DNA of 56,636 nucleotides, from NCBI GenBank assembly GCA_041657565.1, contig JBBABQ010000001.1:1-56636 (forward strand), in the 5' to 3' direction. The position numbers were made by a program, and so were the translations under genes. Below, piece by piece: positions 11,772 to 48,215 of this stretch; within the stretch, counting starts at the first letter, position 1; each line of letters opens with the position of its first letter. The notes beneath the pieces were generated by a model. It did not search any database, had not been told where the DNA came from, and saw only the letters and a program-made list of their open reading frames with translations. Origin of the DNA: Minisyncoccota bacterium. Its GTDB lineage: Bacteria; Patescibacteriota; Minisyncoccia; Minisyncoccales; JAQTVQ01.

Positions 11772-11782
11772 AAAAAAACAAT

Positions 11783-12262: not shown

Positions 12263-12274
12263 TAAATAGGCCTT

Positions 12275-12347: not shown

Positions 12348-12365
12348 CAGCATTTCTTGGAACGT

Positions 12366-19243: not shown

Positions 19244-20302
19244 CTACTTGAAAGAAAGGGCGGAGCCCCAATTGTATTTAGCTAAAGGGTTGGCGGAACC
19301 GCGAGTTTCAAAATGCAAGTGGCATCCGGTGGCCCCGACGACATGGCCGGTATTGCCGATATAGCCGATCAACTGGCCCTGGGAAACTTCCTGGCCGACC
19401 GAAACCAAATTCCTGGAAAGATGGGCGTAAAGAGTGACCACGCTGTTCGGGTGGACTATCCTGATATAATTGCCGTAAGGCCAAGCGTTTGTGGAAACTT
19501 GGATCTTTCCGCCGGCAGACGCGTAAACAGGGGTGCCGCAAGGGCCGCCGACATCGACGGCGTTATAAACATGAAGGGTCTGGGTTATATGCCCGGTAGT
19601 GGGGATCATAAAGAAAGAGTTCGACAAAGCGACGCTTGCCGGCGAAACAACATTCTTAACCGGAGAAGAGACAGCAGCCGGGCTGATCTTTCCTCCCGGG
19701 ACCACCAAAATATCTCCCAACATAAGGTCTGCTCCGGCGTCCAGCTGGTTGAACGCTATAATATCGTCCTGACTGGAGGAATAAGATTTGGCCACTTTGG
19801 ACAAAGTATCCTTCTCTTCTATTATATGCATCACTCCCGAGATCGGAAGGATGACCAATTTTTCTCCCGGCTTTATGGAGGACCATTTTTTCAGATCGTT
19901 GGCCCAAAGGATCGTTTCAAGGCTGATATTGAATTTTTCGGCCAAGCTGGCCAGCGTGTCTCCCTCCTTTACGGTATACTGGATTATGTCCCTTTCCACT
20001 CTTTCGCTCTGGGAATCGGCCTCGGGCTCGCCGGACATCGATGCCAACGTTTGGGGGGCCGCAAAAACAGGAGAGGGCACGCTTTTTAAGCTGCTGCCCT
20101 CTAAAATAGCGTAAGGCTGGATGGTTTCGACCGAATCTTTGGCGCTTAAAAGCGACCCGGCAATATATTTTCCGGTATCGTTGCTGTCTTGAGTCTGGGA
20201 CGAGAGGTCATCCTTCGAGCTGGCCATTCCAAAAAAAGCCAAACTGGCAAATCCCCCCAAAAAACAAAAAAGAAGGCTTTTGTTTTTTAGGCCGTCTTTC
20301 AT
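19244..20302 (-). CDS. LysM-repeat / M23 family peptidoglycan metallopeptidase
   Basis: It has an N-terminal TM segment and two LysM repeats (YTVKEGDTLASLAEKFNISLETILWAN; HIIEEKDTLSKVAKSY). The M23 motifs are GNYIRIVHPN...LYAHL and GNTGHVVGATGCHLHFE. Confidence 0.85.
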   Translation of the reverse strand: MKDGLKNKSLLFCFLGGFASLAFFGMASSKDDLSSQTQDSNDTGKYIAGSLLSAKDSVETIQPYAILEGSSLKSVPSPVFAAPQTLASMSGEPEADSQSERVERDIIQYTVKEGDTLASLAEKFNISLETILWANDLKKWSSIKPGEKLVILPISGVMHIIEEKDTLSKVAKSYSSSQDDIIAFNQLDAGADLMLGDILVVPGGKISPAAVSSPVKNVVSPASVALSNSFFMIPTTGHITQTLHVYNAVDVGGPCGTPVYASAGGKIQVSTNAWPYGNYIRIVHPNSVVTLYAHLSRNLVSVGQEVSQGQLIGYIGNTGHVVGATGCHLHFETRGSANPLAKYNWGSALSFK

Positions 20303-20381: not shown

Positions 20382-21224
20382 ATGTCAAGCAACTTATCCA
20401 CAATTCAACATACTAAGGATCTTTTGTCAAGATACGGAATACAGCCAAAAAAACAGTTCGGCCAGAATTTTTTAGTGGATAAAAACGCCGTTAAGGCCGT
20501 TATAGAAACCGGGCAGATCCAAAAGAGCGATACTGTTCTGGAGATCGGGCCGGGGATCGGCGTCCTGACCAAAGAGCTGGCTCTGGCCGCCGGAAAAGTG
20601 ATAGCGGTGGAGAAGGACCCGCAAATGGTCGAGATATTAATAAGCGAACTGGCCGATTCAAAGATAGGCAACGTGAAGATCGTCCAACAAGACGCTCTGG
20701 AATTCCTGGCCAGCGGCGGGGCGGACAGCCTCGGAGCCTACAAGGCGGCGGGAAACATCCCTTTTTATCTTACCTCCCACCTTGTAAGGGTCCTCCTCGA
20801 AACAAAGAACCAGCCTCAAAAAATAGTTTTCGTCATGCAGAAAGAGGTTGCCCAGCGGATCGCCAGCGTTCCACCGGACATGAGCCTGCTTTCCGCCTCG
20901 GTCCAATTCTATGCCCGGCCAAAAATCGGCGGTTACGTAAAAAGAGGCTCCTTCTGGCCCGCCCCGGACGTGGACGCGGCGATCATCGGGATAACCCCGG
21001 ACCAGCCGCAAAGAGACATCGACCGGGACCTTTTTTTCAAAATTTTAAAAGCCGGCTTCTCCCAGCCGCGGAAACAACTTATCAACAACTTATCAAAATC
21101 TTTGAAAGCTGATAAAATAAAGATCAACAATTGGCTTTTAAAAAATAACATCCAACCTGTCCGTCGGGCCGAAACATTATCGATGGGGGACTGGGTGAAT
21201 CTAACCAAAACCTCCGATGTTTAA
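20382..21224 (+). CDS. rsmA: 16S rRNA (adenine1518/1519-N6)-dimethyltransferase
   Basis: Motifs are FGQNFLVDKN and the SAM motif VLEIGPGIGVLT. Confidence 0.9.
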   Translation: MSSNLSTIQHTKDLLSRYGIQPKKQFGQNFLVDKNAVKAVIETGQIQKSDTVLEIGPGIGVLTKELALAAGKVIAVEKDPQMVEILISELADSKIGNVKIVQQDALEFLASGGADSLGAYKAAGNIPFYLTSHLVRVLLETKNQPQKIVFVMQKEVAQRIASVPPDMSLLSASVQFYARPKIGGYVKRGSFWPAPDVDAAIIGITPDQPQRDIDRDLFFKILKAGFSQPRKQLINNLSKSLKADKIKINNWLLKNNIQPVRRAETLSMGDWVNLTKTSDV

Positions 21225-23334
21225 CACAAACGGCAAAAAGATCTTTTGCTTAGTCGCAGCTCTTTCTTTTATTTTTCTCTTTTTCTTCACGCCGACCTGC
21301 AGCGCTTTTGACGTCGGCCAAGCGGTGCAGGGCGCCTGGGATTGGGGAGTCGGCGTCGTATCTGGCGGGTTAAAAGCCATAGGAAACAGCGCGAAAGCCA
21401 TAGGAGACGCCGTAGTCGGCGCCGCAATAACCGCCATCGGGGCCTTATTCATTGCGCTCAGCCTCGGGTTCCTTACTTTTTGCCACTCCGTATTGATGTG
21501 GGTGATAAGCCCGGACTTTTTAACCGTTCCCATAATAAGCAACGAATTCGTAAGGGGCGTGGGGCTGGCAATAACCATACCGCTCGCGAACATGGTCATC
21601 TTCCTCTCCTTGATAGCTATCGGACTGGGAACCGCTTTGAGGCTCGACAAATTCGATGCCAAAAAAAACCTGCTCCAGCTTCTTATGGTAGCTTTGCTTA
21701 TCAATTTCGCTCCCGTATTTTGCGGCGTCGTTATAGACGTCTCCAATATCTTGATGAACTTTTTTCTGGGAGGGGGAAGCGATGGCTTAGGATTTTTGGT
21801 AAACAATTTCAATAACGCGGCAAAAACGCAAAAAGTCGCCTGGGAAGTGGGCGCCGGAAACGGAGTTGCCGTCAGCCTGCTCGCCAACACCATAGCGATC
21901 GTCGCTTTCAATTGGACCGCCGGAGGGGCGTTCCTCCTTTTTGCCTGGCTATTCCTGCAAAGATACGTGGTCCTTTGGGTGCTTGTGATCCTCTCTCCGA
22001 TCATGGCTTCTTTTATGATCCTGCCCGCAACCAGGGGATGGTGGGAAAAATGGCTTGACCAATTTTTAAGCTGGTGCTTTATCGGGACCATAGCGTCTTT
22101 CTATCTTTACCTGGCCAACCACATGATAGATCTTATCGGCCATGGAAAACTGCTCGGAGGGGCGGGACAAGACCTGGGAGTAGTAGGATCGTCCCTGCTT
22201 TATCTTGTGCCTCTCATTTTACTGCATTACGGTTTCTTCAAAACAATGGAAAGCAGCGCCATCGGTTCCGGCGCAGTCGTCAAATTCGCCCAGACCAATA
22301 CAAAAAAGGCCAGGAACTGGGGATTCACAGCACCGACAAAATTAGCGGCCAAGACAGAGGTCGGAAGAAAAGTTACGAACGCCATAGCGGATGCCGACAA
22401 ATGGGGCCAAGGCAAAAAAGGTTTCGGGGGATGGGCTAAACGCTCTGTTGGAGGGGTCATCGGTTCTGCCGGGATTAAGATGGCCGACAAGCGAGATGAG
22501 CTGATGTCCGAAAAGGCCAAAAAGGCTGCAAAGATGAGCGACCGTCAAATCTCTCACGAACTAATGCACGGCCTTATGACTCCGGCAGAAAAGGCATTGC
22601 TCGTCTCGACCCTGATAAAAGATAAAGATAAAGACGTTCAGAAGAAGGGGAGAAAAGAAGTGGAAGGAAAGACGCTGGAACAGCTTGCAAAATGGGTAGA
22701 TGCGCTGAAAAAAGAAGGCCAAAAAGACGCGGCTCTGCCGATCTTCCTTGCGGCATCGGGCAAAAAGATCGCGGATGGCTCCAGAGCCATTGTCCCGGAG
22801 GATATCGGCTTTGACAATAAGTCCCAGCTAAGCGAAGAAGAGAGAGCTGAGTGGGACAAAAAGAAATGGAACAGCCAAAGCGATAAGGTTTGGAGTAATA
22901 AAGAGAATATAGAAAACGCCGCCGAGGGATTCTGGGAATCGAGTGCCGCGTCATCGGCCATACGCAATTTCTGGGGGTCCGAAGAAATGGGAGCGGCGAC
23001 CAAAAAGTTCAAAGAGCCTCTTGTCAACAGCATTAATGAAGGCACAAAAAACCTTCTCGAGAATATAGAGAATATAGAGACAACCGACCCTGTTCGGGCA
23101 GAAGAGTTGTTCAAGGAGTACGTCCGCAGGAATCCCAAGCTCGCCTCATACGGCGAATCGAGCGCCGGACAAGCGGCTGGGATAGTGTCCATGTGGGAAA
23201 GGGCTCCAAAAGCAATAAAAGACCAATATGACGAAAAGGCGAAAAATGGAAAAGGCTACGAAGGAAAAGGATATAAAAAATTCCTTTCCGACTTGGCCAA
23301 GACCCCTGCTCCCAAAAGCCCAAACACCCCTTAA
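21217..23334 (+). CDS. Large polytopic membrane protein with a ~330-aa hydrophilic K/E-rich tail; possibly a VirB6/TrbL-type analogue (speculative)
   Basis: 705 aa. The signal-like N-terminus is followed by at least 6 hydrophobic helices and a Gly/Ala-rich segment GGLKAIGNSAKAIGDAVVGAAITAIG. The start overlaps the rsmA stop by 8 nt (ATGTTTAA). The CDS call is solid; the functional call is weak. Confidence 0.6.
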   Translation: MFNTNGKKIFCLVAALSFIFLFFFTPTCSAFDVGQAVQGAWDWGVGVVSGGLKAIGNSAKAIGDAVVGAAITAIGALFIALSLGFLTFCHSVLMWVISPDFLTVPIISNEFVRGVGLAITIPLANMVIFLSLIAIGLGTALRLDKFDAKKNLLQLLMVALLINFAPVFCGVVIDVSNILMNFFLGGGSDGLGFLVNNFNNAAKTQKVAWEVGAGNGVAVSLLANTIAIVAFNWTAGGAFLLFAWLFLQRYVVLWVLVILSPIMASFMILPATRGWWEKWLDQFLSWCFIGTIASFYLYLANHMIDLIGHGKLLGGAGQDLGVVGSSLLYLVPLILLHYGFFKTMESSAIGSGAVVKFAQTNTKKARNWGFTAPTKLAAKTEVGRKVTNAIADADKWGQGKKGFGGWAKRSVGGVIGSAGIKMADKRDELMSEKAKKAAKMSDRQISHELMHGLMTPAEKALLVSTLIKDKDKDVQKKGRKEVEGKTLEQLAKWVDALKKEGQKDAALPIFLAASGKKIADGSRAIVPEDIGFDNKSQLSEEERAEWDKKKWNSQSDKVWSNKENIENAAEGFWESSAASSAIRNFWGSEEMGAATKKFKEPLVNSINEGTKNLLENIENIETTDPVRAEELFKEYVRRNPKLASYGESSAGQAAGIVSMWERAPKAIKDQYDEKAKNGKGYEGKGYKKFLSDLAKTPAPKSPNTP

Positions 23335-23374: not shown

Positions 23375-24778
23375 CTACCCTCCATATCTTTTCTTGTCAA
23401 AGTCCGTCAATATCTTATCAAGTTCAGCTCCCACAGAAGCGCCGCTAGAAGAGCCTGCCGGCTTCTTTTCTCTAACGCCAGCGTCAGCATTTTGCTTAAC
23501 CTCTTTTCTCTCTTCTTTCGGCTTTTCATCTCTTATTCCTTCCTCTCTCTTCTTCTCGGGAGCATCCTCTTCTTTGCTCTTCTGAACAGCGCCGGCCGGG
23601 CTCTTAAGATCCAACATCTTAAAAGCTCCAAGAGCACCCAAAATAGCTTTTTCCGCTCCTTCGGCGCCATTGATCCTAAGGTCCAAGTAAGCGTTCTTAT
23701 TCAGGGCCATCTGCCTGACGGTCATATCTCCAGCCATTTCCATAACCTTGCCCATCAACTCTTTATTTCCCACTATCTCTTTCTGCAGAGCTTCAGGGGT
23801 CTTCCCGCAAGCCTTGGCGACCATATTCATGAACAATCCCATGGTCCCGGCTGCGTTTCCTTCTGCCAATAAAAACGCTGCTCTCCTTTCTCCTTCAGCT
23901 TTGTTGATATTGGCATCCCTTTCTCCTTCGGATATCGTTACAGTTTTCTTCTTCGTCTGCTCGGCGGTATAAGGATCGGACAAAGACTTCTTGATCTCTT
24001 CGGGGAGTTCTATGCTCAATATCTGGATGCCGGACAATTCCACTCCGTAACTATCCAGCTTTTCCTTGACAAACCTTCTGTCTTCCTTGATTTTCTTTCC
24101 ATTTATTCTTGCCCTGAACACCTTATCCGTGATTATCCTTTCAAAAAAGATCCTTCCAAGGTCTCCCATTCCCGAGTTCAGCTCGTTCAAGGTATACTGG
24201 CCGATCAGGTCCCTGACCTGGTTGTTCAAGTCATTTACGGCCGTATAAGTCCAATTGGTAATATTGTACCTGGACTTTACGGGATTTTTAGCTCTCATCG
24301 TATACCCGATCTTTACCCTGAGAATGGTTGCCCCGTCTTTTGTGACCGCGGCATTTTCATTTGTTTCCCTTCTCGCGACCAATTCTGAATAGTAAACATC
24401 CGGGATCAGATAGATATAGTCCACCGGTCTCTCTTTGTGATGTTTCTTGTTTCCTTCCGAATCAACTGTGTCCCATTCCCAAGGAAAAATCTCCACGTAA
24501 TTAAGGGGGTCCAAACTGAAAATCTCAATTCCGCCCAAAAATTTCTCAGGATCTTTTTCTCCGGGGCCCAAGGGGACGACATCTCCTTTCTCATCCAGCT
24601 TGAATCCCTTATAGTTCAGCAAAACTTTGATGATCTGGCCTTCTCTTGAAATAAGTTTTGCTTGCCCGTTTTCCATCTTCGTTCCGAACCTTCTCCTTGA
24701 AAGCTCTGAAGGTTTTTTCATCAAAGTTACTTCTTTTTCCTGGCCGGTTTTGGCAGCGTCTTTTTCTGTTTCTTCCAT
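23375..24778 (-). CDS. SPFH/band-7 (prohibitin/flotillin-like) domain protein with extended N- and C-terminal regions
   Basis: 467 aa. The core is GVELSGIQILSIELPEEIKKSL...AEGERDANINKAEGERRAAFLLAEG. The tail is E/K-rich. Confidence 0.75.
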   Translation of the reverse strand: MEETEKDAAKTGQEKEVTLMKKPSELSRRRFGTKMENGQAKLISREGQIIKVLLNYKGFKLDEKGDVVPLGPGEKDPEKFLGGIEIFSLDPLNYVEIFPWEWDTVDSEGNKKHHKERPVDYIYLIPDVYYSELVARRETNENAAVTKDGATILRVKIGYTMRAKNPVKSRYNITNWTYTAVNDLNNQVRDLIGQYTLNELNSGMGDLGRIFFERIITDKVFRARINGKKIKEDRRFVKEKLDSYGVELSGIQILSIELPEEIKKSLSDPYTAEQTKKKTVTISEGERDANINKAEGERRAAFLLAEGNAAGTMGLFMNMVAKACGKTPEALQKEIVGNKELMGKVMEMAGDMTVRQMALNKNAYLDLRINGAEGAEKAILGALGAFKMLDLKSPAGAVQKSKEEDAPEKKREEGIRDEKPKEERKEVKQNADAGVREKKPAGSSSGASVGAELDKILTDFDKKRYGG

Positions 24779-24987: not shown

Positions 24988-25665
24988 TTATGGCTTCAGC
25001 CGGTAAAAAGGAGTATTGCCGTTCTCGGCTTTTTCTCCTTCCAGCCCGCCAAGCATCCAAAGACTTCCGGCGGCCATGTGCAATTCGACCTCATGGTAGG
25101 TTTCATTAATATACCGCGAGGTGAAGATGACCTTCTCTCCGCTTATTCTCCAAGTGCCGCTGCGAACCGTGTCTTCCCGAAGAACCGAGTCTCTGAAACA
25201 GCCGTAGTAAGAAACCCTCAGCAGGGCCCTTCCTCCTTCTTCCAACTGGATGTTATACCAGCTGTTATTCCAAAGGCCCTCCCAAAGAAAGGCCAGCTCT
25301 TTTTCGGTCAAAACCGTATCTTCCGGATAAGAGGGGAGGCGGTCGCGTCCGGCCTCCAGCCTTATCGGTACATAAAAATAGGTTACCGCATCGGTAATGG
25401 GCTGGAGCATCTTCTCCCGGTCCCTGGGAGAGATCATCGGATCTTCCTTGGCGGCTATGGCTTGGCAATTTTTCGAAGCCTGCGGGCTGTTCTGCTCTTT
25501 CGGAGATTCAGGCGCCGCTTGATTGCTGGCGCTTTGCACCAAAGAAGCCTGCCCGGCCTTGGAAAGTTCCGTTGCCGGGGCGCGGTTCAAAAAAAACAGG
25601 GGAAACCCGGCAAAAACGAGCACGGATATAATGGAAACGATAATCGCTTTCTTCTTTTTGTCCAT
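24988..25665 (-). CDS. N-terminally membrane-anchored hypothetical protein
   Basis: 225 aa. The TM segment is AIIVSIISVLVFAGFPLFFL, followed by a low-complexity linker and a ~130-aa W/Y-rich domain. The overlapping + strand ORF 25078-25707 looks like a shadow ORF. Confidence 0.55.
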   Translation of the reverse strand: MDKKKKAIIVSIISVLVFAGFPLFFLNRAPATELSKAGQASLVQSASNQAAPESPKEQNSPQASKNCQAIAAKEDPMISPRDREKMLQPITDAVTYFYVPIRLEAGRDRLPSYPEDTVLTEKELAFLWEGLWNNSWYNIQLEEGGRALLRVSYYGCFRDSVLREDTVRSGTWRISGEKVIFTSRYINETYHEVELHMAAGSLWMLGGLEGEKAENGNTPFYRLKP

Positions 25666-25883: not shown

Positions 25884-25910
25884 TTGACAAAAGTTTTTTT
25901 ATGTTAAAAT
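25884..25910 (+). promoter_or_regulatory. Candidate promoter with extended -10, very close to ATG 25920
   Basis: TTGACA (25884-25889), a 15-nt spacer, then TGtTAAAAT (25902-25910). Only 9 nt lie between the -10 element and the ATG. Confidence 0.35.
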
Positions 25911-25919
25911 ATTTTTAAT

Positions 25920-26495
25920 ATGCAAAAGAATATTACCAAAGAAAAATTTTGGGAAATATACGAAACCCTGCCCGAAGAATTGCAGGACGCGATCTTCTCC
26001 GGAGTAACGGCTGAGGCTATTTCCAGTGCCTGCATTGGAAGCGGAGTAGAGGAAAAAACCCGCCAAGTCGCGAGCTTGGTGGGGGATGTTCTTTTGGGAC
26101 TTTCGCAAGCAAGCGATTTCAAGATCGGTCTGGAACTTGATTTAAATCTCGAGCCTTCCCAGGCTCAAAATATTTACAGCGCCATTAACGCTTCTGTCTT
26201 CGAACCTGTAAAATTACAACTGCAAGAGATATCTTCTCCAAGCAAGAAAATAAAACCGGCCGAAGGCCCCGAAAAAAAAGAAGAAGAAAGAATGGCTGAG
26301 GATCACGAATCCGCTAAGGAAGCAGTCCAGACAAAAGAGACTCCAGAAGAAATCCCTCCCGCTTCAAAACCGGAGATTGAAATGGTTGCACCGGCAACTG
26401 CCCCTAAAAAAACGAAAAGGGTTCCAATAGTAAAAATCTCCAAAGAACCTCCGGCCCCTCCGAAAGGCAGCGATTCTTACCGCGAAACTTTCTGA
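25920..26495 (+). CDS. Hypothetical protein (helical N-domain, Pro/Glu/Lys-rich tail)
   Basis: 191-aa ORF with no recognised motif. It is the first gene of the co-directional T4SS-like block. Confidence 0.5.
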   Translation: MQKNITKEKFWEIYETLPEELQDAIFSGVTAEAISSACIGSGVEEKTRQVASLVGDVLLGLSQASDFKIGLELDLNLEPSQAQNIYSAINASVFEPVKLQLQEISSPSKKIKPAEGPEKKEEERMAEDHESAKEAVQTKETPEEIPPASKPEIEMVAPATAPKKTKRVPIVKISKEPPAPPKGSDSYRETF

Positions 26496-26514
26496 TAATT
26501 TTTAGCCAAATAAT

Positions 26515-26928
26515 ATGCAATTCCAGCTCCCCCAATTCATCGAGCACGAAACAGGTTTTTTAGGGCCCCTCACCGTAAGACAGACCGTTATTTTTGCGTT
26601 CGGACTGGGGATCTCTTTTTTTCTCTGGCTGATCCTTGGCAAAAATAATTTTTGGGTCTTTGTCTCCCTCTCTGTTGTTGTGATCTCTTCCTCTCTGGCC
26701 TTGGGATTCGGAAAAGTGAACGGACTGAACATGACCACGGTATTGAACAATTTTTTTGTTTTTTCCGTACGGCCGAAGCTTTATCTCTGGAAGAGAAAAG
26801 AAGTGACCGTATACTATGAAAGAAAACCCCAGGCCAAACCGAGCAAAGATCCGGAAGAATCCCAGCTGAAGGTCACCAAATCAAGCAAGACAAAAGAATT
26901 AAGCAAAAAAATACAATTCGGCAGCTAG
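26515..26928 (+). CDS. PrgI-family / VirB3-like small membrane protein
   Basis: 137 aa. MQFQLPQFIEHETGFLGPLTVRQTVIFAFGLGISFFLW is followed by a second TM segment. This matches the PrgI pattern as I recall it. The gene lies directly upstream of VirB4. Confidence 0.65.
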   Translation: MQFQLPQFIEHETGFLGPLTVRQTVIFAFGLGISFFLWLILGKNNFWVFVSLSVVVISSSLALGFGKVNGLNMTTVLNNFFVFSVRPKLYLWKRKEVTVYYERKPQAKPSKDPEESQLKVTKSSKTKELSKKIQFGS

Positions 26929-26934
26929 CCATTT

Positions 26935-27576
26935 ATGGAATCTCCAACACAACAATTCATCCCGATAGACCAGATCAGAGAGGGAGTGATGATAATGAAG
27001 GATAAATCCCTGAGAGGAGTGATCCTTGTTTCGTCCCTGAATTTCGCCCTGAAATCGGAGGATGAACAAACGGGAATAATATATCAATTCCAGGATTTTT
27101 TGAATTCGCTGGATTTTTCCTGCCAGATATTGGCCCAATCAAGAAAATTGAACATAACCGGATACTTGGAAAAGCTCAAGGAGATAGAGGCAAAACAGGA
27201 GAACGAACTTTTGAAGATCCAAACGGGCGAATACCGCAAATTCATCGAGCAGATCGTTGGCGGCGGCTCGATAATGTCGAAAAGCTTCTATGTCGTCGTT
27301 CCTTATTATCCTTTGATCGAGGTCCCCGGAGCTGCCGGCATGGCCGAGAAGAACGCCAAGGCGACAAAAAAAGATCTGACCGAAGACAAATTCCAGCGCG
27401 GGAAATACCAGCTCTGGCAAAGGATGGAATACGTCATCCTTGGGCTGAGGCGCTGCGGACTAAGAGCCAGCCCGATGACCTCTCCCGAGCTTATCGAAAC
27501 GCTTTGGGCTCTGCACCATCCCAAAGAGGCCGAGTCCGGATACTACCCGGAACTGCCGCCGGAAATATTAGCATAA
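26935..27576 (+). CDS. VirB4 N-terminal-region-like protein (split from the ATPase ORF by one in-frame TAA)
   Basis: 213 aa, with IPIDQIREGVMIMKDKSLRGVILVSSLNFALKSEDEQTGIIYQFQDFLNSL. This resembles the N-terminal part of Gram-positive-type VirB4 proteins. It is in the same frame as 27598-29367. Confidence 0.5.
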   Translation: MESPTQQFIPIDQIREGVMIMKDKSLRGVILVSSLNFALKSEDEQTGIIYQFQDFLNSLDFSCQILAQSRKLNITGYLEKLKEIEAKQENELLKIQTGEYRKFIEQIVGGGSIMSKSFYVVVPYYPLIEVPGAAGMAEKNAKATKKDLTEDKFQRGKYQLWQRMEYVILGLRRCGLRASPMTSPELIETLWALHHPKEAESGYYPELPPEILA

Positions 27577-27597
27577 CCAGGACAAACAAAATTTTCG

Positions 27598-29367
27598 ATG
27601 AATTTTCTAAACAAAGGGAAGCCGGAAAAACTGTTCGAGTCGGAGAGGATGGACGCGAAAGACATAATCGCGCCCGCTTCGATCGAAATAAAACAGAATA
27701 TGATAAAGCTGGGAGAGAGGCTGGCCAAAACCTACTTTGTCTTTTCTTATCCGAGATACCTGACCACCGGCTGGCTTTCTCCGATCATCAACCTCGACAT
27801 CCCCATGGACATCTCCTTTTTCCTCCACCCGATGGACACCGGAGAAACTCTTAAAAAATTAAGAAGGAAAGTGACCGAGATCCAAGTCGAGATCATAAAG
27901 AACGAAGAGAAGGGGCTTATCAGAGACCCGGCCTTGGAAACAGCTTACAGCGACCTGGAAAGCCTTCGCGACAATTTGCAAACAGCGCAGGAAAAAATGT
28001 TCAAATTCGGCCTCTATATCACGGTTTACGCCGAAACCGAAGCCCAGCTTAACGACATAGAAACGACCTTGAGATCGGTCCTCGAATCGCGCCTTATTTA
28101 TTTGAAACCCGCCCTTTACCAGCAAAAAGAGGGTTTTCTTTCCGTCTCTCCTTACGCTCTCGACAAACTGCAGATCCACAACAGTATGAACACCGGACCG
28201 CTGTCTTCCGTTTTCCCGTTCGTATCTTTCGACCTGAGCTCCAACGAAGGGATATTGTACGGGATGAACAAGCATAACAGCTCCCTTGTCCTGTTCGACA
28301 GGTTCACCTTGGAAAACGCCAATATGGTGATCTTCGCCAAATCCGGTTCGGGTAAATCTTACGCGGTGAAGCTGGAGGTCCTCCGCTCGCTGATGATGGG
28401 AGTGGAAGCCATCATCGTCGATCCCGAAAACGAATATGACATGCTTGCCGGCGCCGTCGGCGGGTCTTTTTTCAGAATATCCCTCAGCTCCGAAGATCAC
28501 ATCAACCCCTTTGACCTGCCCGCCCCGAGGGAAGACGAAAAACCTGAAGATGTTTTGAGGTCCAATATCATCAACCTTGTCGGGCTGGTAAGGATCATGC
28601 TGGGCGGCCTCAGCCCCGAAGAAGATGCCATTATCGACAGAGCTCTGGCGGAGACCTACGCGTCAAAAGACATTACCCCCGATTCCGACCCGTTCACTTG
28701 GAAAGATAATGTTCCCATCCTTTCAGATCTGGAATCGGTCCTTGAAACAATGCAAGGAGCGGATTCTCTGGTACAGCGGTTAAGAAAATTCACCCGCGGG
28801 ACCTTTGCCTCTTTCTTCAATCAAAAATCCAATATCTCCATGACAAATCCCTTGGTCATCTTCGGCATCAGGGATATGGAAGACGAGCTCAGGCCGATGG
28901 CCATGTTCATTATCATGCGTTATATCTGGAACGCCGTCAGGTCGGAATTGAAAAAAAGGATATTGGTGATAGATGAAGCTTGGTGGCTGATGCAATCCGA
29001 AGACGGAGCGTCCTTCTTATACGGAATGGCCAAGCGCGCCAGAAAATACTGGCTGGGAGTTACGACCATAACCCAGGACGTCTCGGACTTTATGAAATCG
29101 TCCTACGGCAAGCCCATTATCACAAACTCTTCCCTGCAGATCCTGCTGAAACAAAGCCCGGCCACGGTCGATGTCGTCCAGCAGACATTCAGCTTGACCG
29201 CTGAAGAAAAATTCCTGCTGCTCGAAACGCCTGTCGGAGAGGGGATATTTTTCGCCGGCCAAAAGCACGTAGCCATAAAAATAGTCGCTTCTTACACCGA
29301 GGATCAGATCATAACATCCAGCCCGGAACAGATACTCAAGATCAAAGAGGCCAAAAGGAACGCCTGA
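27598..29367 (+). CDS. VirB4/TrbE/PrgJ-family T4SS ATPase (C-terminal 589 aa)
   Basis: The N-terminal part has DIIAPASIEI...YPRYLTTGWL. Walker A is AKSGSGKS (28336-28359) and Walker B is ILVIDEAWWLM. ITQDVSDF is also present. Confidence 0.85.
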   Translation: MNFLNKGKPEKLFESERMDAKDIIAPASIEIKQNMIKLGERLAKTYFVFSYPRYLTTGWLSPIINLDIPMDISFFLHPMDTGETLKKLRRKVTEIQVEIIKNEEKGLIRDPALETAYSDLESLRDNLQTAQEKMFKFGLYITVYAETEAQLNDIETTLRSVLESRLIYLKPALYQQKEGFLSVSPYALDKLQIHNSMNTGPLSSVFPFVSFDLSSNEGILYGMNKHNSSLVLFDRFTLENANMVIFAKSGSGKSYAVKLEVLRSLMMGVEAIIVDPENEYDMLAGAVGGSFFRISLSSEDHINPFDLPAPREDEKPEDVLRSNIINLVGLVRIMLGGLSPEEDAIIDRALAETYASKDITPDSDPFTWKDNVPILSDLESVLETMQGADSLVQRLRKFTRGTFASFFNQKSNISMTNPLVIFGIRDMEDELRPMAMFIIMRYIWNAVRSELKKRILVIDEAWWLMQSEDGASFLYGMAKRARKYWLGVTTITQDVSDFMKSSYGKPIITNSSLQILLKQSPATVDVVQQTFSLTAEEKFLLLETPVGEGIFFAGQKHVAIKIVASYTEDQIITSSPEQILKIKEAKRNA

Positions 29368-29427
29368 TCGCGGACGCCGTTCAAATATCTGGGCGAGGCT
29401 GCTGGACATTCGCGAAAAAACTGAAAA

Positions 29428-30192
29428 ATGAACAATCCCTTTTATAACAAAATAGCCTCTTTCTCAAAAAAAGCTTTTTACGATCCTGATTCCAGGATCT
29501 TTGTGGCGGTAAATGATTTCCTCTCCTTTGTCACGATCATCTCAATAGCAACGATCATCCTTGAGACCGTACCCGCCTTGTCGCCCGAGCATCCCTTGTT
29601 CCTTTTTATGGAATATACCGCCGTAGTCTTCTTTTCCATCGAATATGTTTGCCGCATCATAGGGGCCAACAAAAAACTTTCGTACGTTTTCAGCTTCTTC
29701 GGTCTTATCGACCTTTTGGCCATTATTCCCACCTTATTGCATTTGAGCAATTTAACCCCCTTAAAATCAGTAAGAGCTATAAGGATCTTGCGTTTTTTAA
29801 GGATATTGCGGATCGCCAAAGTGGACCGGATCGAACCCGGCGACAGCCAGGAGGAATTCGTGGAAGTGTATAAAATAAATTTGAAAATATATTTTCTGGC
29901 TTCCTTAACGATAATTTTGATCCTGGGGAGCCTCGCTTACATATTTGAAGAAGGCAACTATGGTTTTGGAAGCATTCCCGAAAGCATGCTTTGGGTCACC
30001 AAAATAGTTTTGGCGGACCCCGGGATCAAAACATTCCCCCAAACGATCGGGGGGACGGCCATCTCTCTCGTTGCAAGGTTTTTCGGATTGGTCCTGCTCG
30101 GATTCTTGATCCGCATCGTTGGAGATTTGATCAACCGATTCCTTCTCGGCATAAAGACCATTGATCGCGATACTTTAGACAATAAATTTTGA
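29428..30192 (+). CDS. 6-TM voltage-sensor-containing ion-transport protein with a non-canonical pore
   Basis: S4 is VRAIRILRFLRILRIAKV, with a basic residue at every third position. The pore region SIPESMLWVTKIVLADPGIK aligns to [20 protein letters not shown]-type K+ channels but lacks TVGYG. Confidence 0.7.
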   Translation: MNNPFYNKIASFSKKAFYDPDSRIFVAVNDFLSFVTIISIATIILETVPALSPEHPLFLFMEYTAVVFFSIEYVCRIIGANKKLSYVFSFFGLIDLLAIIPTLLHLSNLTPLKSVRAIRILRFLRILRIAKVDRIEPGDSQEEFVEVYKINLKIYFLASLTIILILGSLAYIFEEGNYGFGSIPESMLWVTKIVLADPGIKTFPQTIGGTAISLVARFFGLVLLGFLIRIVGDLINRFLLGIKTIDRDTLDNKF

Positions 30193-30194
30193 CC

Positions 30195-30689
30195 ATGGCA
30201 GAAATTGACGCAAAAAAATTGGGCAGAGATAAGATCCTGGAAAAGATCCGGGAGGTTTTCGAAAGGGAAGGAGAGGCTTTTGACGGAGACGAAACGGATG
30301 GGGGAGAAGTATCGGTCGGCAACAAACCGAAAGATCCCGATTTCCCCGTTATCATCTTCCTTCTAGCGATAGCGAAAGACATTCTCGACGCCCTCGACCT
30401 GACGCTGATCGCCATAATCTTCACTTTTCCCATAAAGCTTTTCATCATCATAATTATTTTTGTCTGGGGCTTCGGAAAAATGAAATTCGGGGGGTTTAAA
30501 AAAATGATCCTCCGGATGATCCTGATCGCGATCTTGGAAATGATACCTGTATTGTCGATAATCCCCACGGAAACGATATTCGTTCTGATGATCCACTTCA
30601 GGGAGAAAAAACTGGTCAAACTGTTCAACTTAGCTCTTGAAGAGCTGAAAAGGGATATGGACCTTGAATTAAAAATGCACAGGAGGTAG
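30195..30689 (+). CDS. Small polytopic membrane protein, unknown function
   Basis: It has an acidic N-terminus and then 3-4 hydrophobic helices (VIIFLLAIAKDIL, LFIIIIIFVWGF, ILRMILIAILEMIPVLSII). I prefer ATG 30195 to the TTG at 30189 in the ORF track. Confidence 0.5.
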   Translation: MAEIDAKKLGRDKILEKIREVFEREGEAFDGDETDGGEVSVGNKPKDPDFPVIIFLLAIAKDILDALDLTLIAIIFTFPIKLFIIIIIFVWGFGKMKFGGFKKMILRMILIAILEMIPVLSIIPTETIFVLMIHFREKKLVKLFNLALEELKRDMDLELKMHRR

Positions 30690-30754
30690 ATCTTATTGTT
30701 TTAAAAAGGCCCCGCATAGTGTAAACTAATAATAAATAACGGCAAAAAAATAAA

Positions 30755-32389
30755 ATGCTGGAGAAAAATAAAAAATTATTTTTAATATTTTTAACGGCAT
30801 TTTTTCTGTTTTCCGGATATTTCTGTCTTGCCGCTCCCTCCGAGAACCTGGAGAACCAATATCCGGTTCTGCCCGGGATGACCGGACAGGAGGTCCCAAC
30901 CTCCACGCAAACGTCCCTTCCGGCGGCAGTAAGGTATTTTTTCCATTTTGTTGTTTTTGCGGCCGGACTTATTATATTTTTAGCTTTCATAAAGGGAGGA
31001 GTGGACTATCTCCGTTCGGCGGGAAATACGGCAAAAACGCAATTGGCAAAAGAAGAGATGACCTCCTCCGTGATCGGGGTCGCGATAATCCTTTGTTCCT
31101 GGCTTCTTTTAAGCACGATCAACCCTACGATCTTATTTTACGGAGGGAAGGTGCAGACCACGCAGATATCTACTATCACTCCCAATGCCGATGAAGACCC
31201 GGCTAAACGGGAATTTTTCCAGATCCCCATAGGAAGGCTGATAGAACGGGCTATCCTTGAAGACGGCGCCGTCGCCAATATAGACACGGCCAATCAAAAC
31301 CTGGAAGAGGTCAAAAATAAGGCGGAAAACCTCAAAAACCTGGCCGCCGAACTGAAAGACATCGCCCTCTCTTTTGAATGCGGGGATTCTTCCTGTAGCG
31401 GCAGCTGCAACGGGTCGGGCTGCGGAGACAACTACGACCAAGCGGCTATCGACTCCAAGGTCCAAGAGATAAACGACGCCATTGATGAGCTGAAAGCGGC
31501 GAGAAAGGACGATGTCCGGCCGAACAGATGGGACATCAACAACCCCCGATACGACCTAAGGCTCGCAGCCGCTTTGATCACCGGCGCCTGTCCGTCCGGA
31601 GCAATAAACCAAACCGATTTTGTCGGGATAGAAAATTCCATCAAAAAAGAGGACTTGTCCATCAAGACCTTCCCGGGATGGCCGGATAATAAAATACAAT
31701 ACGGCGGAGCGATTATCGACGATCCCGCCACTTTCTATTGCGAAAATCCCGATTTCTCCACCGCAACGGAGATCGTCGACACTACCGACGAGATCATCGA
31801 AAATCTTCCCTCTGACGAGCTTCCTGCCCCCAGTTCCGGGTCCGCCCCTCAGGTCCCATCTGCTCCAGCTACCGGCAACGGTACGTACTCTTTACCCAGC
31901 TATCCGTTCCTGTCCCAGTTAGACTTGGCCCACGCCAATTGGAGAGGCATAGCTTGCGGGCCGACCTCGATAGCCACAATATTAAGATTTTACGGAGTAA
32001 AGGTGAACGGCCAAGATGCGGGCGGAGACAACCTGATCACCGACATGAAGACGCACGGAAACACAATCTGGTCGGATTCTCCAAGGGTCGGGATGGATCT
32101 CGGCGCGGCAAGGCCGTATGTTAGGAACACCTTCGGATTGAATTACAGCCAGCTTTCCAATATTTCCCAAATAAAAACGGAAGTGGTCGATAACCACCAC
32201 CCGGTCATAATCCTCTGCAAGGGATTTACCGGCATTTATGCCCACTTTATGGTCGTATACGGCGCCGAGTATTCCGGAAGCACTCTGGTCAAAGCTTATA
32301 TAATGGACCCGCTGAAATATAAGATATCCGAGCTCACAGGCTCGCAGGTGTCGTCTAAGTGCGGCAGTTATACTTCTTTTTGGCCTTAA
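30755..32389 (+). CDS. Pilin-headed surface protein: signal peptide, VirB2-like 2-TM head, Cys-cluster linker, C39-like cysteine peptidase domain
   Basis: The head is LENQYPVLPG...VRYFFHFVVFAAGLIIFLAFIKGGVDYLRSAGNTAKTQLAKEE...LCSWLLLSTINP. The C-terminus has WRGIACGPTSIATILRFYG and a later AHFMVVYG (a papain-like Cys...His arrangement, C39_2-like). Confidence 0.65.
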   Translation: MLEKNKKLFLIFLTAFFLFSGYFCLAAPSENLENQYPVLPGMTGQEVPTSTQTSLPAAVRYFFHFVVFAAGLIIFLAFIKGGVDYLRSAGNTAKTQLAKEEMTSSVIGVAIILCSWLLLSTINPTILFYGGKVQTTQISTITPNADEDPAKREFFQIPIGRLIERAILEDGAVANIDTANQNLEEVKNKAENLKNLAAELKDIALSFECGDSSCSGSCNGSGCGDNYDQAAIDSKVQEINDAIDELKAARKDDVRPNRWDINNPRYDLRLAAALITGACPSGAINQTDFVGIENSIKKEDLSIKTFPGWPDNKIQYGGAIIDDPATFYCENPDFSTATEIVDTTDEIIENLPSDELPAPSSGSAPQVPSAPATGNGTYSLPSYPFLSQLDLAHANWRGIACGPTSIATILRFYGVKVNGQDAGGDNLITDMKTHGNTIWSDSPRVGMDLGAARPYVRNTFGLNYSQLSNISQIKTEVVDNHHPVIILCKGFTGIYAHFMVVYGAEYSGSTLVKAYIMDPLKYKISELTGSQVSSKCGSYTSFWP

Positions 32390-32400
32390 ACTTAAAAAAT

Positions 32401-33216
32401 ATGCCATCAAAAATAAAAACCATCAACAAAAAAATATTTCTGCTTGGATTGGCGGCGCTTTCGGCCGGCCTCGCGATCCTTTTTCTGAACTTTCCGGACC
32501 AGGCCAAGGGCCAGGGAGGGGATACGTCTTGCGACACAGAGATCCCGATCGGGGAAGCGATGGAACAAGCGGTTACATTTACCGGAACAGTGAGGAATAG
32601 TATTTTTTCCTCGGAACAATTGATCGATGATGAGATCGACAAGATCAAAAATCTCATCTCCGCGGTCCAAAGATGCGACCCGAACAAGTGCGATCCCGTC
32701 TGTTATTTGGTCCCACACACCTCTACCGCTCCGGGGGCGCCAGGCCAAGGCCCGGTGACCATCACTACTTACACTTGCGAGCACGATGCTTGCACAGGAG
32801 AGATTTGCCCCGTTTCCAGTATTAATTCCGCCTATCAACAGGTGGAGGCTGTATACAACAGCATTGTCGGCGTCCAAGAAAGCACAAAGACCTATACCGG
32901 GAAGAAAGATTATTCCTGGAAATACGGCAGCCAAAATTACAATGACCAGTCGGCGGGCGGGATCGTTACAGCCATGCTTAAAACCGCCAGAGAATCTTTT
33001 AGCGGATGTTTCCTGACTTCGGACGAATGGAACCAATATCAGGAAGGCAAAATAACCGGGAAGATAATATCTACCTGCCCCGAAGCCATGATATTGGGCA
33101 GAGAGCTGCCTGATGAGTGCAAGATCGTTTGCAATACCAATCCTCCTTCCGATGCATGCTATGACTGCATGGATTGCAAAAGCCCGGGTAATTTCTTTTG
33201 CTGCGACTTAAAATAA
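32401..33216 (+). CDS. Cys-rich secreted or anchored protein
   Basis: From ATG 32401 there is a signal/anchor segment IFLLGLAALSAGLAILFL. More than 15 Cys residues include CDPNKCDPVC, CEHDACTGEICP and CYDCMDCKSPGNFFCC. Confidence 0.55.
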   Translation: MPSKIKTINKKIFLLGLAALSAGLAILFLNFPDQAKGQGGDTSCDTEIPIGEAMEQAVTFTGTVRNSIFSSEQLIDDEIDKIKNLISAVQRCDPNKCDPVCYLVPHTSTAPGAPGQGPVTITTYTCEHDACTGEICPVSSINSAYQQVEAVYNSIVGVQESTKTYTGKKDYSWKYGSQNYNDQSAGGIVTAMLKTARESFSGCFLTSDEWNQYQEGKITGKIISTCPEAMILGRELPDECKIVCNTNPPSDACYDCMDCKSPGNFFCCDLK

Positions 33217-33229
33217 TAAAAACAAACTT

Positions 33230-34567
33230 ATGAAAAAAATATTATTTATATTCGTCTTGCTGGGAGTACTGGCGGCAACCGTTGCTTTCGCTATGCCGCT
33301 GGAGAACAATTACCCTGTCATAGGAAGCACTGTTGCTCCGACCTCGACCAAAACAAGCATGCCGACGCTCATAAAATATTTCTTCGGGATTGCCCTTATT
33401 GCCGCCGCTTTTATAGCTTTCGGAGCGCTGGTCTACGGCGGAATAAAATACTTGACCTCCGCGGGCAACGCGTCCCAGACCAGTACGGCCAAGGATATGA
33501 TATTCTCGGCATTCCTCGGCTTGGGAATACTCCTTCTGTCTTGGCTGATGCTGGGCACCATCAACCCAAAACTGACATCCACGGGATCAATATCCATGTA
33601 CGTGGCTCCGGGATCCGGAGTGGTGGTCACTTACGCGGACGGAGAGACCATAGTCTACCAGCAATCCGTCAAATCCCTTGAAGGCACCGTCAAGAACATT
33701 ACATTCGAGCCGAAGAACTACGGCGTAAACGGATACACGGAAGAAAATTGGGAAGGGACGAAATCGGCTATAACCTCGGGGAATCAATCCAGCGTTATAA
33801 AATCCTTGGAGATATCTCCGAAAATGCCCGGCGTTTATTTGTGCTACCAGGAGGGAGGGATCGAAATTTGCAGGGCCTTCACAGGGGGCTCTTCAAGGCT
33901 GGGAGAGGAAAAATCCAAATATAAAACAATAAAAATATTCGACCAGCTTGATGACGCCGGCAATGCGATAAAAAGATACACCGCCATAACGTTCGAGAAA
34001 GAGAACTACGGATTCGGAGGGCTGGACGTTTACGAAAGCGACGAAACACCGGCATCCGGGATGATTGGGCCGGTAAGGACCGGCTATTTCAACTCAAAAG
34101 AAGTTCTGAACATAGATTTGAACACCGACTGGACGGCAGCGTCAATGGCGGTCATTTATCACGATCCGCGGAAGACCTACAGCAGCACCGTAAAAGTTTG
34201 CAGCCAAAAAGACATGACCGGAGAGTGCCAAATACTTGGAGCTCAATCAACGGCCTTCCAAGTCCTTAGAAGCGGCGTAAACGATGAGGTTAGGTCTATA
34301 GACCTGCAAGGAAGCGTCATTAATATCTTGTGCGACAAAGAATGCACCCGTTCGGGATCTGACCCGGACCTGTACGCCGGGTCTTACAGATGCGGCTCCG
34401 GCAACAAGTGCCAGATATTCGATCAATCCAACGCCCCGAACAGCAACTTGACCAACGATCCGATAGGGACCTGCCGGCCGGCCAGCAACAACGTCAACAT
34501 GCCGTGGATCTCAAACCTGCCGTGCGCGACCTATTACATAATCAAGGCTTACGAAAGCGGGACTTAA
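33230..34567 (+). CDS. Second pilin-headed surface protein with a ~330-aa C-terminal domain
   Basis: The head LENNYPVIGS...IKYFFGIALIAAAFIAFGALVYGGIKYLTSAGNASQTSTAKDM...LLSWLMLGTINP is paralogous to the head of the 30755 protein. Confidence 0.6.
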   Translation: MKKILFIFVLLGVLAATVAFAMPLENNYPVIGSTVAPTSTKTSMPTLIKYFFGIALIAAAFIAFGALVYGGIKYLTSAGNASQTSTAKDMIFSAFLGLGILLLSWLMLGTINPKLTSTGSISMYVAPGSGVVVTYADGETIVYQQSVKSLEGTVKNITFEPKNYGVNGYTEENWEGTKSAITSGNQSSVIKSLEISPKMPGVYLCYQEGGIEICRAFTGGSSRLGEEKSKYKTIKIFDQLDDAGNAIKRYTAITFEKENYGFGGLDVYESDETPASGMIGPVRTGYFNSKEVLNIDLNTDWTAASMAVIYHDPRKTYSSTVKVCSQKDMTGECQILGAQSTAFQVLRSGVNDEVRSIDLQGSVINILCDKECTRSGSDPDLYAGSYRCGSGNKCQIFDQSNAPNSNLTNDPIGTCRPASNNVNMPWISNLPCATYYIIKAYESGT

Positions 34568-36277: not shown

Positions 36278-36412
36278 TTAAACGGTTAACTGCCAGCGGC
36301 CTTTCTGTCTCCTTCTGGAAAGGGTCCTTTCTCCTCCTTTTGTGGATTTTCTAGCTAAAAACCCGTGGGTTCTCGCTCTTTTTTTCTTTTTAGGCTGATA
36401 TGTTGAACTCAT
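36278..36412 (-). CDS. rpmH: 50S ribosomal protein L34
   Basis: Hand translation of the minus strand gives [44 protein letters not shown] (44 aa). It is too short for the ORF track. Confidence 0.9.
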
Positions 36413-44936: not shown

Positions 44937-45692
44937 TTAGTTTCTTATTTGTTGTAGGCTCCTTTTTAAAAGTATAATAGTTGCTCCGCTAAAAATTGCA
45001 AGCCCGAAAGCGATCGTCCATGCTTTTGCCTTGATCGGTCCGGTTTTCCCTTTTTGCCCGTCCAGACTGGCCGAAAGGCTGGTTTTTTGGACTGATCCGT
45101 CTTTTTCTGTCCTTTCAAGGGAATTTGCCTCTTTTTGTTTTTTGGCCGCTCCCGTGCTGTTTTTTTCTCCCGGCGTCCCTCCGTCGGCCAGGCTTGTCTG
45201 CCAATTAACGGCCGTTTCGCCGCCTTTCCCGGGATCGATCCTTTCCATCGTCTGTTTCGTTTTGTTGTTTCCTCCGAACCAGCCGCCGGAACAATCTACT
45301 TTTTCCGCCAAAGAACCGTCCTTGCGATATAAGCTCAGTTCGGCCCCATTATTGTTCAGAGACCCTTTAAATATCTGATCTGCCTTAACCAATGGCAGGG
45401 CGTTGTCGTCGGTCCTTTCTAAAATATAAAAACCCTTTGCAGGGATGGCGCCTTCGAGCTGTATGGTCAAAGAACCTTTGGCCTTGAGGCTCCAGCCGTT
45501 TAAGTTTATACCATAATCGGCGTTATTGTAAAGCTCCAGCCATTCATCGGTTGCCGAATTTTGCGTTCCCATCCAAGATATTTCGCTTACCACCACAGAG
45601 AGGCCGTCCTCCGGGGCCGAAAGGGCGGGAAAGCCGGGCAAGAGCCAAGCGAGGGATATCAGAGCAAATAAAATTGTTGGTCTTGCTGCCAT
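44937..45692 (-). CDS. Lamin-tail-domain (LTD) protein with signal peptide and C-terminal TM anchor
   Basis: Contains VVVSEISWMGTQNSATDEWLELYNNADYGINLNGWSL. The C-terminus is WTIAFGLAIFSGATIILL. The start overlaps the ruvB 3' end by 34 nt. Confidence 0.7.
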   Translation of the reverse strand: MAARPTILFALISLAWLLPGFPALSAPEDGLSVVVSEISWMGTQNSATDEWLELYNNADYGINLNGWSLKAKGSLTIQLEGAIPAKGFYILERTDDNALPLVKADQIFKGSLNNNGAELSLYRKDGSLAEKVDCSGGWFGGNNKTKQTMERIDPGKGGETAVNWQTSLADGGTPGEKNSTGAAKKQKEANSLERTEKDGSVQKTSLSASLDGQKGKTGPIKAKAWTIAFGLAIFSGATIILLKRSLQQIRN

Positions 45693-46675: not shown

Positions 46676-46702
46676 TTTGGATTGTTTTATATTAGGTAGG
46701 TT

Positions 46703-46831: not shown

Positions 46832-46898
46832 TTTATAGGCTTGTATCTTATATATACCCTTCAATTTTCTTTTGGGCAAAGAGGGCTCGCCGCATTTT

Positions 46899-48194: not shown

Positions 48195-48215
48195 GGGTTT
48201 TTGAGATCTATTATT

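Follow-up and report, generated by a model that had tools for sequence, protein, structure and literature searches.

A chromosomal type IV secretion system with pilin-headed proteins near dnaA in a Candidatus Paceibacterota genome

Is a chromosomal cluster of genes for VirB2-, VirB3- and VirB4-like proteins the transfer module of a mobile element, or a resident apparatus of the cell surface? The question is raised by nine open reading frames (ORFs) at positions 25920-34567 of a contig from a metagenome-assembled genome (MAG) of Candidatus Paceibacterota; the window analysed here is the whole of this contig, 56.6 kb in length, with the remaining genome outside view. An earlier note, made from the sequence alone, had read the locus as a resident, non-conjugative surface apparatus, and the Candidatus Paceibacterota source, the fixed genomic slot and the lack of mobility genes in the window all speak for that reading. 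The locus is a chromosomal type IV secretion system (T4SS) of the kind that most of the ultra-small Patescibacteria carry beside the origin, and an ordinary member of a system published between 2023 and 2025. The earlier interpretation is thus right but not new, since the same conclusion has been published for the phylum (PMC10633639; PMC12102498; PMC12857230). The explanation we prefer, with a probability of about 0.8, is that of a minimised T4SS, derived from monoderm conjugation machines, which would be fixed in the chromosome by the origin and would serve host contact rather than DNA transfer. Our confidence is high for the identity of the machine and moderate for a filament as against mere display or export.

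We compared the locus with relatives drawn from a scan for VirB4, taking one genome per species, that returned 586 stretches with a confirmed VirB4 relative; the best 80 were analysed as loci, and part of the counts given below refer to 83 close loci, the others to these 80. The best 80 VirB4 relatives are 64-81% identical to the VirB4 of the window and all come from Patescibacteria MAGs, labelled Paceibacterota, Minisyncoccales, Nealsonbacteria, Staskawiczbacteria, Parcubacteria, Saccharibacteria or plain bacterium. Across the 80 species-level genomes the common order begins with a LysM/M23 peptidase gene (- strand), ksgA, a VirB6-like gene and sometimes a gene for an SPFH protein (- strand). 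It continues with a hypothetical protein, PrgI, a TrsD-like gene of about 213 codons, virB4, a small protein with three transmembrane (TM) segments and zero to four pilin-headed genes, and it ends with jag, yidC, rnpA (- strand), (rpmH), and then dnaA and dnaN. In its two closest relatives the gene order of the window recurs, with orthologues of the ORFs starting at 30755, 32401 and 33230, and one of these relatives (L081) has a VirB4 that is 94% identical. The comparison of synteny proposed in the earlier note hence shows both order and slot to be kept.

In the window itself the nine ORFs were all recovered on the + strand as first described, with spacings of 6-65 nt or slight overlaps. The landmark genes are ksgA (20382), rnpA (35812), rpmH (36278-36412, - strand) and dnaA (36677); the locus ends 1.7 kb from rpmH and 2.1 kb from dnaA, in keeping with the distance of about 2 kb given in the earlier note. 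The lowest point of the cumulative GC skew falls at about 37-39 kb, in agreement with a replication origin there. The GC content and composition of the locus show no break relative to the flanks, and neither att-like direct repeats nor tRNAs were found at the cluster borders. Given this constant slot and order in 80 genomes, and no att repeats, border tRNAs or compositional break, the cluster is a vertically inherited resident system of the Patescibacteria chromosome, and its identification as an integrative and conjugative element (ICE) was rejected.

The gene content of the window points the same way. A Pfam scan of essentially all ORFs of at least 70 amino acids over the contig detected no relaxase, VirD4, VirB8, VirB9, VirB10, integrase or replication gene, the remainder being housekeeping genes, as the earlier note had supposed for the 56 kb; nor does any relaxase, VirD4 or integrase gene adjoin the cluster in the full contig, which that note had named as the mark of an ordinary ICE. 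None of the attributes of a conjugative element (relaxase, type IV coupling protein (T4CP), integrase or replication gene, att or oriT) was thus found in the 56.6 kb, the slot being fixed in 80 genomes, and on this contig a cluster devoid of relaxase and T4CP lies near dnaA, rnpA, rpmH and ksgA. The VirB7/VirB9/VirB10 core and the VirB11 of a diderm VirB/D4-type system were likewise not found, with no Pfam match to VirB8, VirB9 or VirB10. The sole T2SSE-family ATPase (46899-48194, - strand) was considered as a VirB11 and rejected, scoring 56 bits for VirB11 versus about 420 bits for the GspE/PilB type, so that the reported absence of VirB11 holds for the contig.

The ATPase of the machine is encoded by 27598-29367 (+ strand). 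This protein comprises the rest of the N-domain and the ATPase domain of a VirB4 (P-loop_TraG, 3e-25; AAA_10, 1e-13 in Pfam) and passes the NCBIfam model of CD1110-family VirB4 proteins (371.7 bits against a cut-off of 325; positions 180-734 of the 752 in the model). Its Walker A motif, AKSGSGKS, is located exactly where it had been placed before (28336-28359), with Walker B at 28960-28977. The nearest solved structure is the C-terminal domain of the VirB4 of Thermoanaerobacter, a Firmicute (4AG5, 2.3e-39), and by its sequence the protein probably belongs to the Patescibacteria group within the mating-pair formation class MPF-FATA.

Directly upstream of virB4, 26935-27576 (+ strand) encodes a TrsD/TraC-like protein, the detached equivalent of a VirB4 N-terminal domain. 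It matches positions 1-117 of the CD1110-type model (1.7e-5), the two proteins together tiling one full-length VirB4 (1-117 plus 180-734), as well as positions 103-217 of the Mbov_0397 VirB4 model from a Mycoplasma ICE (1.7e-9) and, weakly, TrsD (0.006). Its database homologues carry the precomputed Pfam family PF26593 'TraC-like' and a JGI label of VirB4 component. An AlphaFold2 (AF2) model, computed like the others in this study on an alignment of database homologues, reached a mean confidence score (pLDDT) of 75, and its top 14 fold matches in the PDB were all TrwK/VirB4 chains of the R388 machine, with probabilities of up to 0.97 and modest E-values (8e-3 to 0.25). Sequence-profile searches of solved structures with the TrsD-like family, and with the VirB6-like family described below, returned nothing meaningful. 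The two ORFs share one frame with a single TAA between them, and a TrsD-like gene stands as a separate ORF beside virB4 in 78 of the 80 loci. The split is for this reason not damage, and the conserved two-ORF state rules out a pseudogene, a sequencing error or stop-codon recoding. Of the earlier description of a VirB4 'in two pieces', the VirB4 call and the two ORFs stand and the implied broken gene does not. The same two-gene arrangement of TrsD and VirB4 is known from pGO1-type monoderm systems.

Two further components of the apparatus were recognised near virB4, one by its own profile match and the other only via homologues and topology. The 2-TM protein encoded by 26515-26928 (+ strand), earlier called PrgI/VirB3-like, scored 31.7 bits with Pfam PrgI (cut-off 27) and is present in 77 of 83 loci. 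The VirB6/TrbL-like candidate is a polytopic membrane protein of 705 amino acids (21217-23334, + strand) with a signal peptide, approximately six TM segments (residues 65-338) and a hydrophilic C-terminal tail of about 365 amino acids. This protein itself has no Pfam match, but TrbL/VirB6 was matched by four of its 43 homologues (best 7e-6) and TrbL_4 by three, and the orthologues of the two closest relatives carry a precomputed TrbL_3 (38% identity for the one in L081). Its family is syntenic in 54-59 loci. The suggestion that it might be a VirB6-sized member of the apparatus is accordingly strengthened by the TrbL matches of its homologues together with synteny in at least 54 loci.

The window encodes three proteins of the VirB2/TrbC superfamily, each with a signal peptide, two hydrophobic helices and a profile match; the genes of the two pilin-headed ones lie 1.4 and 3.9 kb downstream of virB4 and the third is 15 kb away. 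The first (30755-32389, + strand) starts with a signal peptide and VirB2-like hairpin (amino acids 1-125), continues with a Cys-rich helical middle region (approximately 156-301) and ends in a C39_2 peptidase domain (383-519), and it passes the Pfam cut-offs for both T4SS_pilin (30.3 bits; cut-off 26.6) and Peptidase_C39_2 (29.3 bits; cut-off 24). The second (33230-34567, + strand; head at amino acids 1-115) falls just under the T4SS_pilin cut-off with 23.2 bits. Its head is 49% identical to that of the first over 94 amino acids (E 2.6e-25) and its Cys-containing tail of about 330 amino acids is unrelated, in agreement with the paralogous heads of about 115 amino acids that had been proposed; along its whole length it shares 45% identity with the orthologue of close relatives. 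The third, unlinked pilin gene (11783-12262, + strand), also anticipated, encodes a small protein of 159 amino acids with a signal peptide and two TM segments (T4SS_pilin, 35.2 bits; TrbC, 22.5 bits, 1.3e-4), and is a candidate for the shaft subunit. By profile hidden Markov model (HMM), then, two of the three VirB2-like calls pass the cut-off and one is just short of it. The gene of the small pilin is flanked by tRNA-Arg(TCG) and tRNA-Lys(CTT) genes (11566-12348), and its predicted mature N-terminus bears a cluster of eight cysteines. The NCBIfam model Mbov_0395, a pilin-like family, matched both the second pilin-headed protein (6e-6) and the small pilin (5e-4), a similarity which hints that, against what is usually stated, monoderm MPF-FATA systems may not lack VirB2-like proteins altogether.

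Long pilin-headed proteins are abundant among the relatives. The 80 loci contain 123 such ORFs, 128-2095 amino acids in length (median about 520), with homologous heads and variable tails. In a sample of these, Pfam detected T4SS_pilin in 43 of 70 and, here and there in the tails, domains of adhesin-like or enzyme type, those of relatives including InlB B-repeat, SpaA-like, LTD and fn3. Head residues Y61, G82, G108, I122 and P124 are nearly invariant. Both termini of VirB2 lie outside the cell, and with both ends of the hairpin facing outwards the C-terminal domains of the pilin-headed proteins should be extracellular. For the peptidase of the first protein, C401 and H497 are invariant in eight homologues and residue 518 is Asp or Asn (Cys401, His497 and Asp518 here). 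The AF2 model of this protein is shallow, being built on just these 8 homologues (overall pLDDT 66; 80-90 in the C-terminal domain). In it the Cys/His pair is predicted to sit in a papain-like fold of the Peptidase C39 kind, and Foldseek, whose matches were confined to the peptidase domain, linked it to CdiA-CT and other papain-like interbacterial toxins, to staphopain and to the C39 domain of ComA (E 6e-4 to 1e-3; TM-score on target 0.54-0.73).

A homologous T4SS cluster, SEML1_0006-0019, is essential for epibiotic growth in the saccharibacterium Southlakia epibionticum, has essential pilin genes among its members and lacks recognisable relaxase or coupling proteins (Wang et al., 2023; PMC10633639). 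A survey of 3,035 genomes placed most VirB4 proteins in a Patescibacteria clade inside MPF-FATA; it located TrsD (the commonest T4SS component reported in Patescibacteria), PrgI/VirB3, VirB6 and VirB2-like pilins near virB4, the pilin genes often forming arrays, and found that relaxases are nearly absent and that the cluster of Paceibacteria sits near dnaA, dnaN, rnpA, rpmH and ksgA (Quinonero-Coronel et al., 2025; PMC12102498). One Paceibacteria genome in Table S3 of this survey has the order VirB6-x-VirB3-TrsD-VirB4-x-VirB2. A 2025 review repeats the picture and speculates on a pilus conduit (PMC12857230).

The remaining ORFs of the locus are less familiar. Its first gene (25920-26495, + strand) encodes a conserved soluble protein with no TM segment, whose homologues occupy the same position before PrgI in 60 of 83 loci. 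Just 5' of it lies a promoter-like site (25884-25913, + strand; TTGACA-18-AATATT, 10/12 matches), which is suggestive only, as the number of such sites in the region does not exceed the shuffled expectation. A small 3-TM protein (30189-30689, + strand) looked unique by BLAST; iterative HMM searches recovered its family in 58 of 83 loci and, in a global search, in 297 representative clusters. Where the order was read, the gene stands just 3' of virB4, or directly beside the pilin-headed genes if those lie across the cluster, and from this placement the protein is a predicted conserved partner of the pilin genes. The ORF at 32401-33216 (+ strand), described earlier as a Cys-rich secreted protein, indeed encodes a signal-anchored protein with one N-terminal TM segment and 16 cysteines. 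Its module of about 240 amino acids is present in 50 of 83 loci, where it forms a protein of its own or is built into pilin-headed proteins as their middle or C-terminal domain, and weakly matches residues 156-301 of the first pilin-headed protein of the window (2e-8). No Pfam or NCBIfam family was assigned to the soluble, 3-TM or Cys-rich families, even with their homologues scanned (about 96 across the three), and the Cys-rich module had no PDB sequence match.

The voltage-sensor channel-like protein seen between virB4 and the 3-TM gene (29428-30192, + strand) is well founded as a 6-TM protein with an Ion_trans domain (3.6e-18) and an S4 motif, RAIRILRFLRILRIAK, at 29773-29820 that forms the ladder RxxRxxRxxRxxRxxK. 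A voltage-gated K+ (Kv) channel would combine such a ladder with a TVGYG-type filter; here the ladder is present and the filter absent, with no TVGYG-type or GYG/GFG sequence after the pore helix and no Ion_trans_2 in the close family. The gene is missing from the loci of all 83 close relatives and is not core, but a lineage-specific accessory. A metagenome scan with the channel as query returned mostly generic Kv channels of other phyla, approximately six of 80 loci being informative. About 80 homologues occur in Patescibacteria, and in 13 independent contexts the gene abuts a member of the 3-TM family in five, lies near a VirD4-like ATPase in one (L084, two genes upstream) and is unlinked in seven. 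The five adjacencies show three arrangements (VirB4-channel-3TM-pilin in L085 and L169; 3TM-channel-x-pilins in L086; also L088 and L172). A binomial estimate for four of them at p = 0.005 gave 4e-7, uncorrected for relatedness, and chance adjacency is expected at far less than 1% per context. Channel and 3-TM gene thus look like a facultative pair. A stricter rule, by which every channel homologue with 52% identity or more would be linked to a T4SS, was rejected, one homologue of 54% identity lying among unrelated genes. The earlier placing of the channel within the apparatus is therefore upheld in part: it recurs beside the 3-TM family in other lineages, but the 83 close loci do without it. 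The T4SS cluster of L085 additionally contains two genes of the 23S_rRNA_IVP family (2105-2470 and 3677-4039), one of which separates the TrsD-like gene from virB4, and one of the two has a weak bAvd-like match. Proteins of the 23S_rRNA_IVP/bAvd-like type can accompany diversity-generating retroelements.

Upstream of the locus, 19244-20302 (- strand) encodes a secreted LysM and M23 peptidase (LysM, 8e-20; Peptidase_M23, 7e-26) found at the same place, 5' of ksgA and the VirB6-like gene, in at least 30 related loci. It is a candidate cell-wall hydrolase of the cluster and analogue of VirB1, LysM/M23-containing VirB1 homologues having been reported near virB4 in Paceibacteria (PMC12102498). An SPFH/Band-7 protein (23375-24778, - strand; Band_7, 3e-11) is a frequent neighbour, its gene lying between the VirB6-like and hypothetical genes in 38 of 83 loci. 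Beside it, a signal-anchored protein of 225 amino acids (24988-25665, - strand) had no homologue in any related locus. Elsewhere on the contig, the GspE/PilB-type ATPase (431 amino acids only) adjoins a family-less protein of 383 amino acids in a region (44937-49367, - strand) that also encodes, on the far side of ruvB, a secreted lamin-tail-domain protein (44937-45692). These genes probably have to do with a type IV pilus or with competence and stand apart from the T4SS. The ORF at 15447-17135 encodes a Lys/Glu-rich, apparently coiled-coil protein of 562 amino acids with no Pfam family and a weak SMC-like match (1e-3). A lipid-metabolism block at 1797-11397 comprises a FabA-like/NMO fusion, a second NMO, an acyltransferase, biotin carboxylase, carboxyltransferase, biotin ligase, DegV and two tandem PlsY paralogues, and is worth recording because, to our knowledge, Patescibacteria are generally said to lack fatty-acid synthesis.

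In the explanation we prefer, a complex of VirB3, VirB6 and VirB4 would use ATP to draw hairpins of the pilin type out of the membrane for assembly at the cell surface. The small pilin would supply the shaft, and the two pilin-headed proteins would act as minor or tip subunits or else stay anchored in the membrane. The C-terminal domains that they display outwards would be the papain-like cysteine peptidase and Cys-rich modules, joined in relatives by repeats of the adhesin type, and the structure may contact or breach the host envelope in the service of an epibiotic lifestyle rather than DNA transfer. The 3-TM protein may help in assembly or insertion, the cell's own wall is probably opened by the LysM/M23 peptidase, and the channel would be an optional add-on.

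Several points weigh against this explanation. The VirB2 calls are short, weak profile matches, one of the three being below the cut-off; a head profile searched against solved structures found no pilin by sequence, and the AF2 head, a two-helix hairpin of residues 55-122, has a pLDDT of only 60-69. No filament has been seen, essentiality has been shown only in Saccharimonadia, with no experiment in the class Paceibacteria, and nothing resembling VirB8 was recognised. Patescibacteria commonly have T4CP homologues at a distance from virB4 (PMC12102498), and with a single contig of 56.6 kb in view the gene for a coupling protein could lie in another part of the genome. A tightly packed pilus of the VirB2 type is also difficult to picture with a large C-terminal domain on each subunit. 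In an alternative that is possible, though we lean against it, the machine is real and the heads are a membrane anchor or export tag by which enzymes and adhesins are displayed or released, no filament being formed. Most pilin-domain ORFs in this order are indeed large (median about 520, maximum 2095 amino acids), their tails resemble exoenzymes, toxins and adhesins (papain-like toxin folds; InlB B-repeat, SpaA-like, LTD and fn3) and monoderm T4SSs are normally without pili (PMC12102498). However, small pilins exist too, namely that at 11783 and ORFs of 128-240 amino acids in relatives, the head residues listed above are conserved well beyond what an anchor needs, and pilin arrays are essential in S. 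epibionticum (PMC10633639).

Import rather than export of material, whether DNA, nucleotides or other host molecules, as in the ComB T4SS of H. pylori or the archaeal Ced system, appears quite improbable for this locus. Uptake has been raised in reviews for the auxotrophic Patescibacteria (PMC11665869; PMC12857230), neither relaxase nor T4CP is on the contig, and VirB4 weakly matches the CedB DNA-import model (8e-13); yet that match amounts to 47.8 bits against 372 for conjugative VirB4 models, the locus holds no DNA-binding or ComEC-like partner, and displayed peptidase and adhesin-like domains suit contact or attack better. A decayed ICE, its relaxase, coupling protein and integrase lost or off the contig, is scarcely credible even though the VirB4, TrsD, PrgI and pilin-like models that match all stem from ICEs or plasmids (CTn2-type CD1110, Mycoplasma Mbov_0395/0397, pGO1 TrsD). 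Against it, all components are intact, slot and order are the same in 80 species-level genomes with VirB4 proteins 64-81% identical, housekeeping ksgA is embedded in the cluster, composition is like that of the flanks, and there is no integrase, att repeat or flanking tRNA. The resident host-contact apparatus remains the explanation we favour. An elaboration of it that we think rather unlikely would make the locus a modular display system, in which VirB2-like heads carry swappable outer domains (toxin-related protease, Cys-rich module, adhesin repeats) and are serviced by the 3-TM protein, itself repeatedly paired with the filterless voltage-sensor channel (in 6 of 14 channel contexts and three arrangements); if this were true, the product would be a surface filament for attack or attachment, and membrane potential would govern how it is assembled or fired.

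A large part of bacterial diversity belongs to the Patescibacteria, which live attached to other microbes, and the T4SS is among the few of their machines whose necessity for this attached lifestyle has been demonstrated. On the existence and general make-up of the system the present locus adds nothing; it could serve as a compact, well-conserved example from Paceibacteria. Mildly new, as far as comparison of sequences can tell, are long pilin-head fusions as the rule in this order, the 3-TM partner, the Cys-rich module and the channel pairing. None of these four turned up in the published text and supplements that were searchable, and the searchable supplementary text of the survey contains no match to PF00520/Ion_trans or PF13529/Peptidase_C39 (PMC12102498). 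The analysis suggests the pilin-anchored cysteine peptidase and the Cys-rich modules as candidates for host-facing cargo, and draws attention to the 3-TM protein and the channel as accessory parts.

Among known systems, the locus is closest in composition and position to the T4SSs of the Patescibacteria clade, with which it shares a chromosomal location near dnaA, dnaN, rnpA, rpmH and ksgA, a VirB4 with adjacent TrsD, PrgI/VirB3, VirB6 and VirB2-like arrays, a peptidase 3' of virB4 and no relaxase or T4CP nearby. It differs from the case of S. epibionticum in its class (Paceibacteria rather than Saccharimonadia) and in having mostly long pilin-domain fusions with variable outer domains. With the MPF-FATA systems of monoderms (the CD1110-type VirB4 of CTn2; TrsC/TrsD/TrsE of pGO1; PrgH/PrgI/PrgJ of pCF10) it has in common a VirB4 that passes the CD1110 cut-off, a TrsD-like gene before VirB4, a PrgI homologue, the lack of a VirB7/VirB9/VirB10 core and a Firmicute VirB4 as best solved relative; unlike them, it is fixed in the chromosome, possesses VirB2-like pilins and lies on a contig with no relaxase, T4CP or oriT context. 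The ICE module of Mycoplasma is also similar, as VirB4 scores 274 bits with Mbov_0397, positions 103-217 of which are matched by the TrsD-like protein, and two pilin heads match Mbov_0395. These scores are all below the model cut-offs, however, and in Mycoplasma VirB4 is one undivided protein of about 894 model positions within an element that is mobile. Finally, a VirB2-type head and several divergent paralogues beside the machine recall the T-pilus systems of the VirB/D4 type and the VirB2 arrays of Bartonella and Anaplasma. All of these belong to diderms and include VirB7-11 and VirD4; their pilins are small and often cyclised, whereas the long C-terminal outer domains of the proteins described here would preclude cyclisation.

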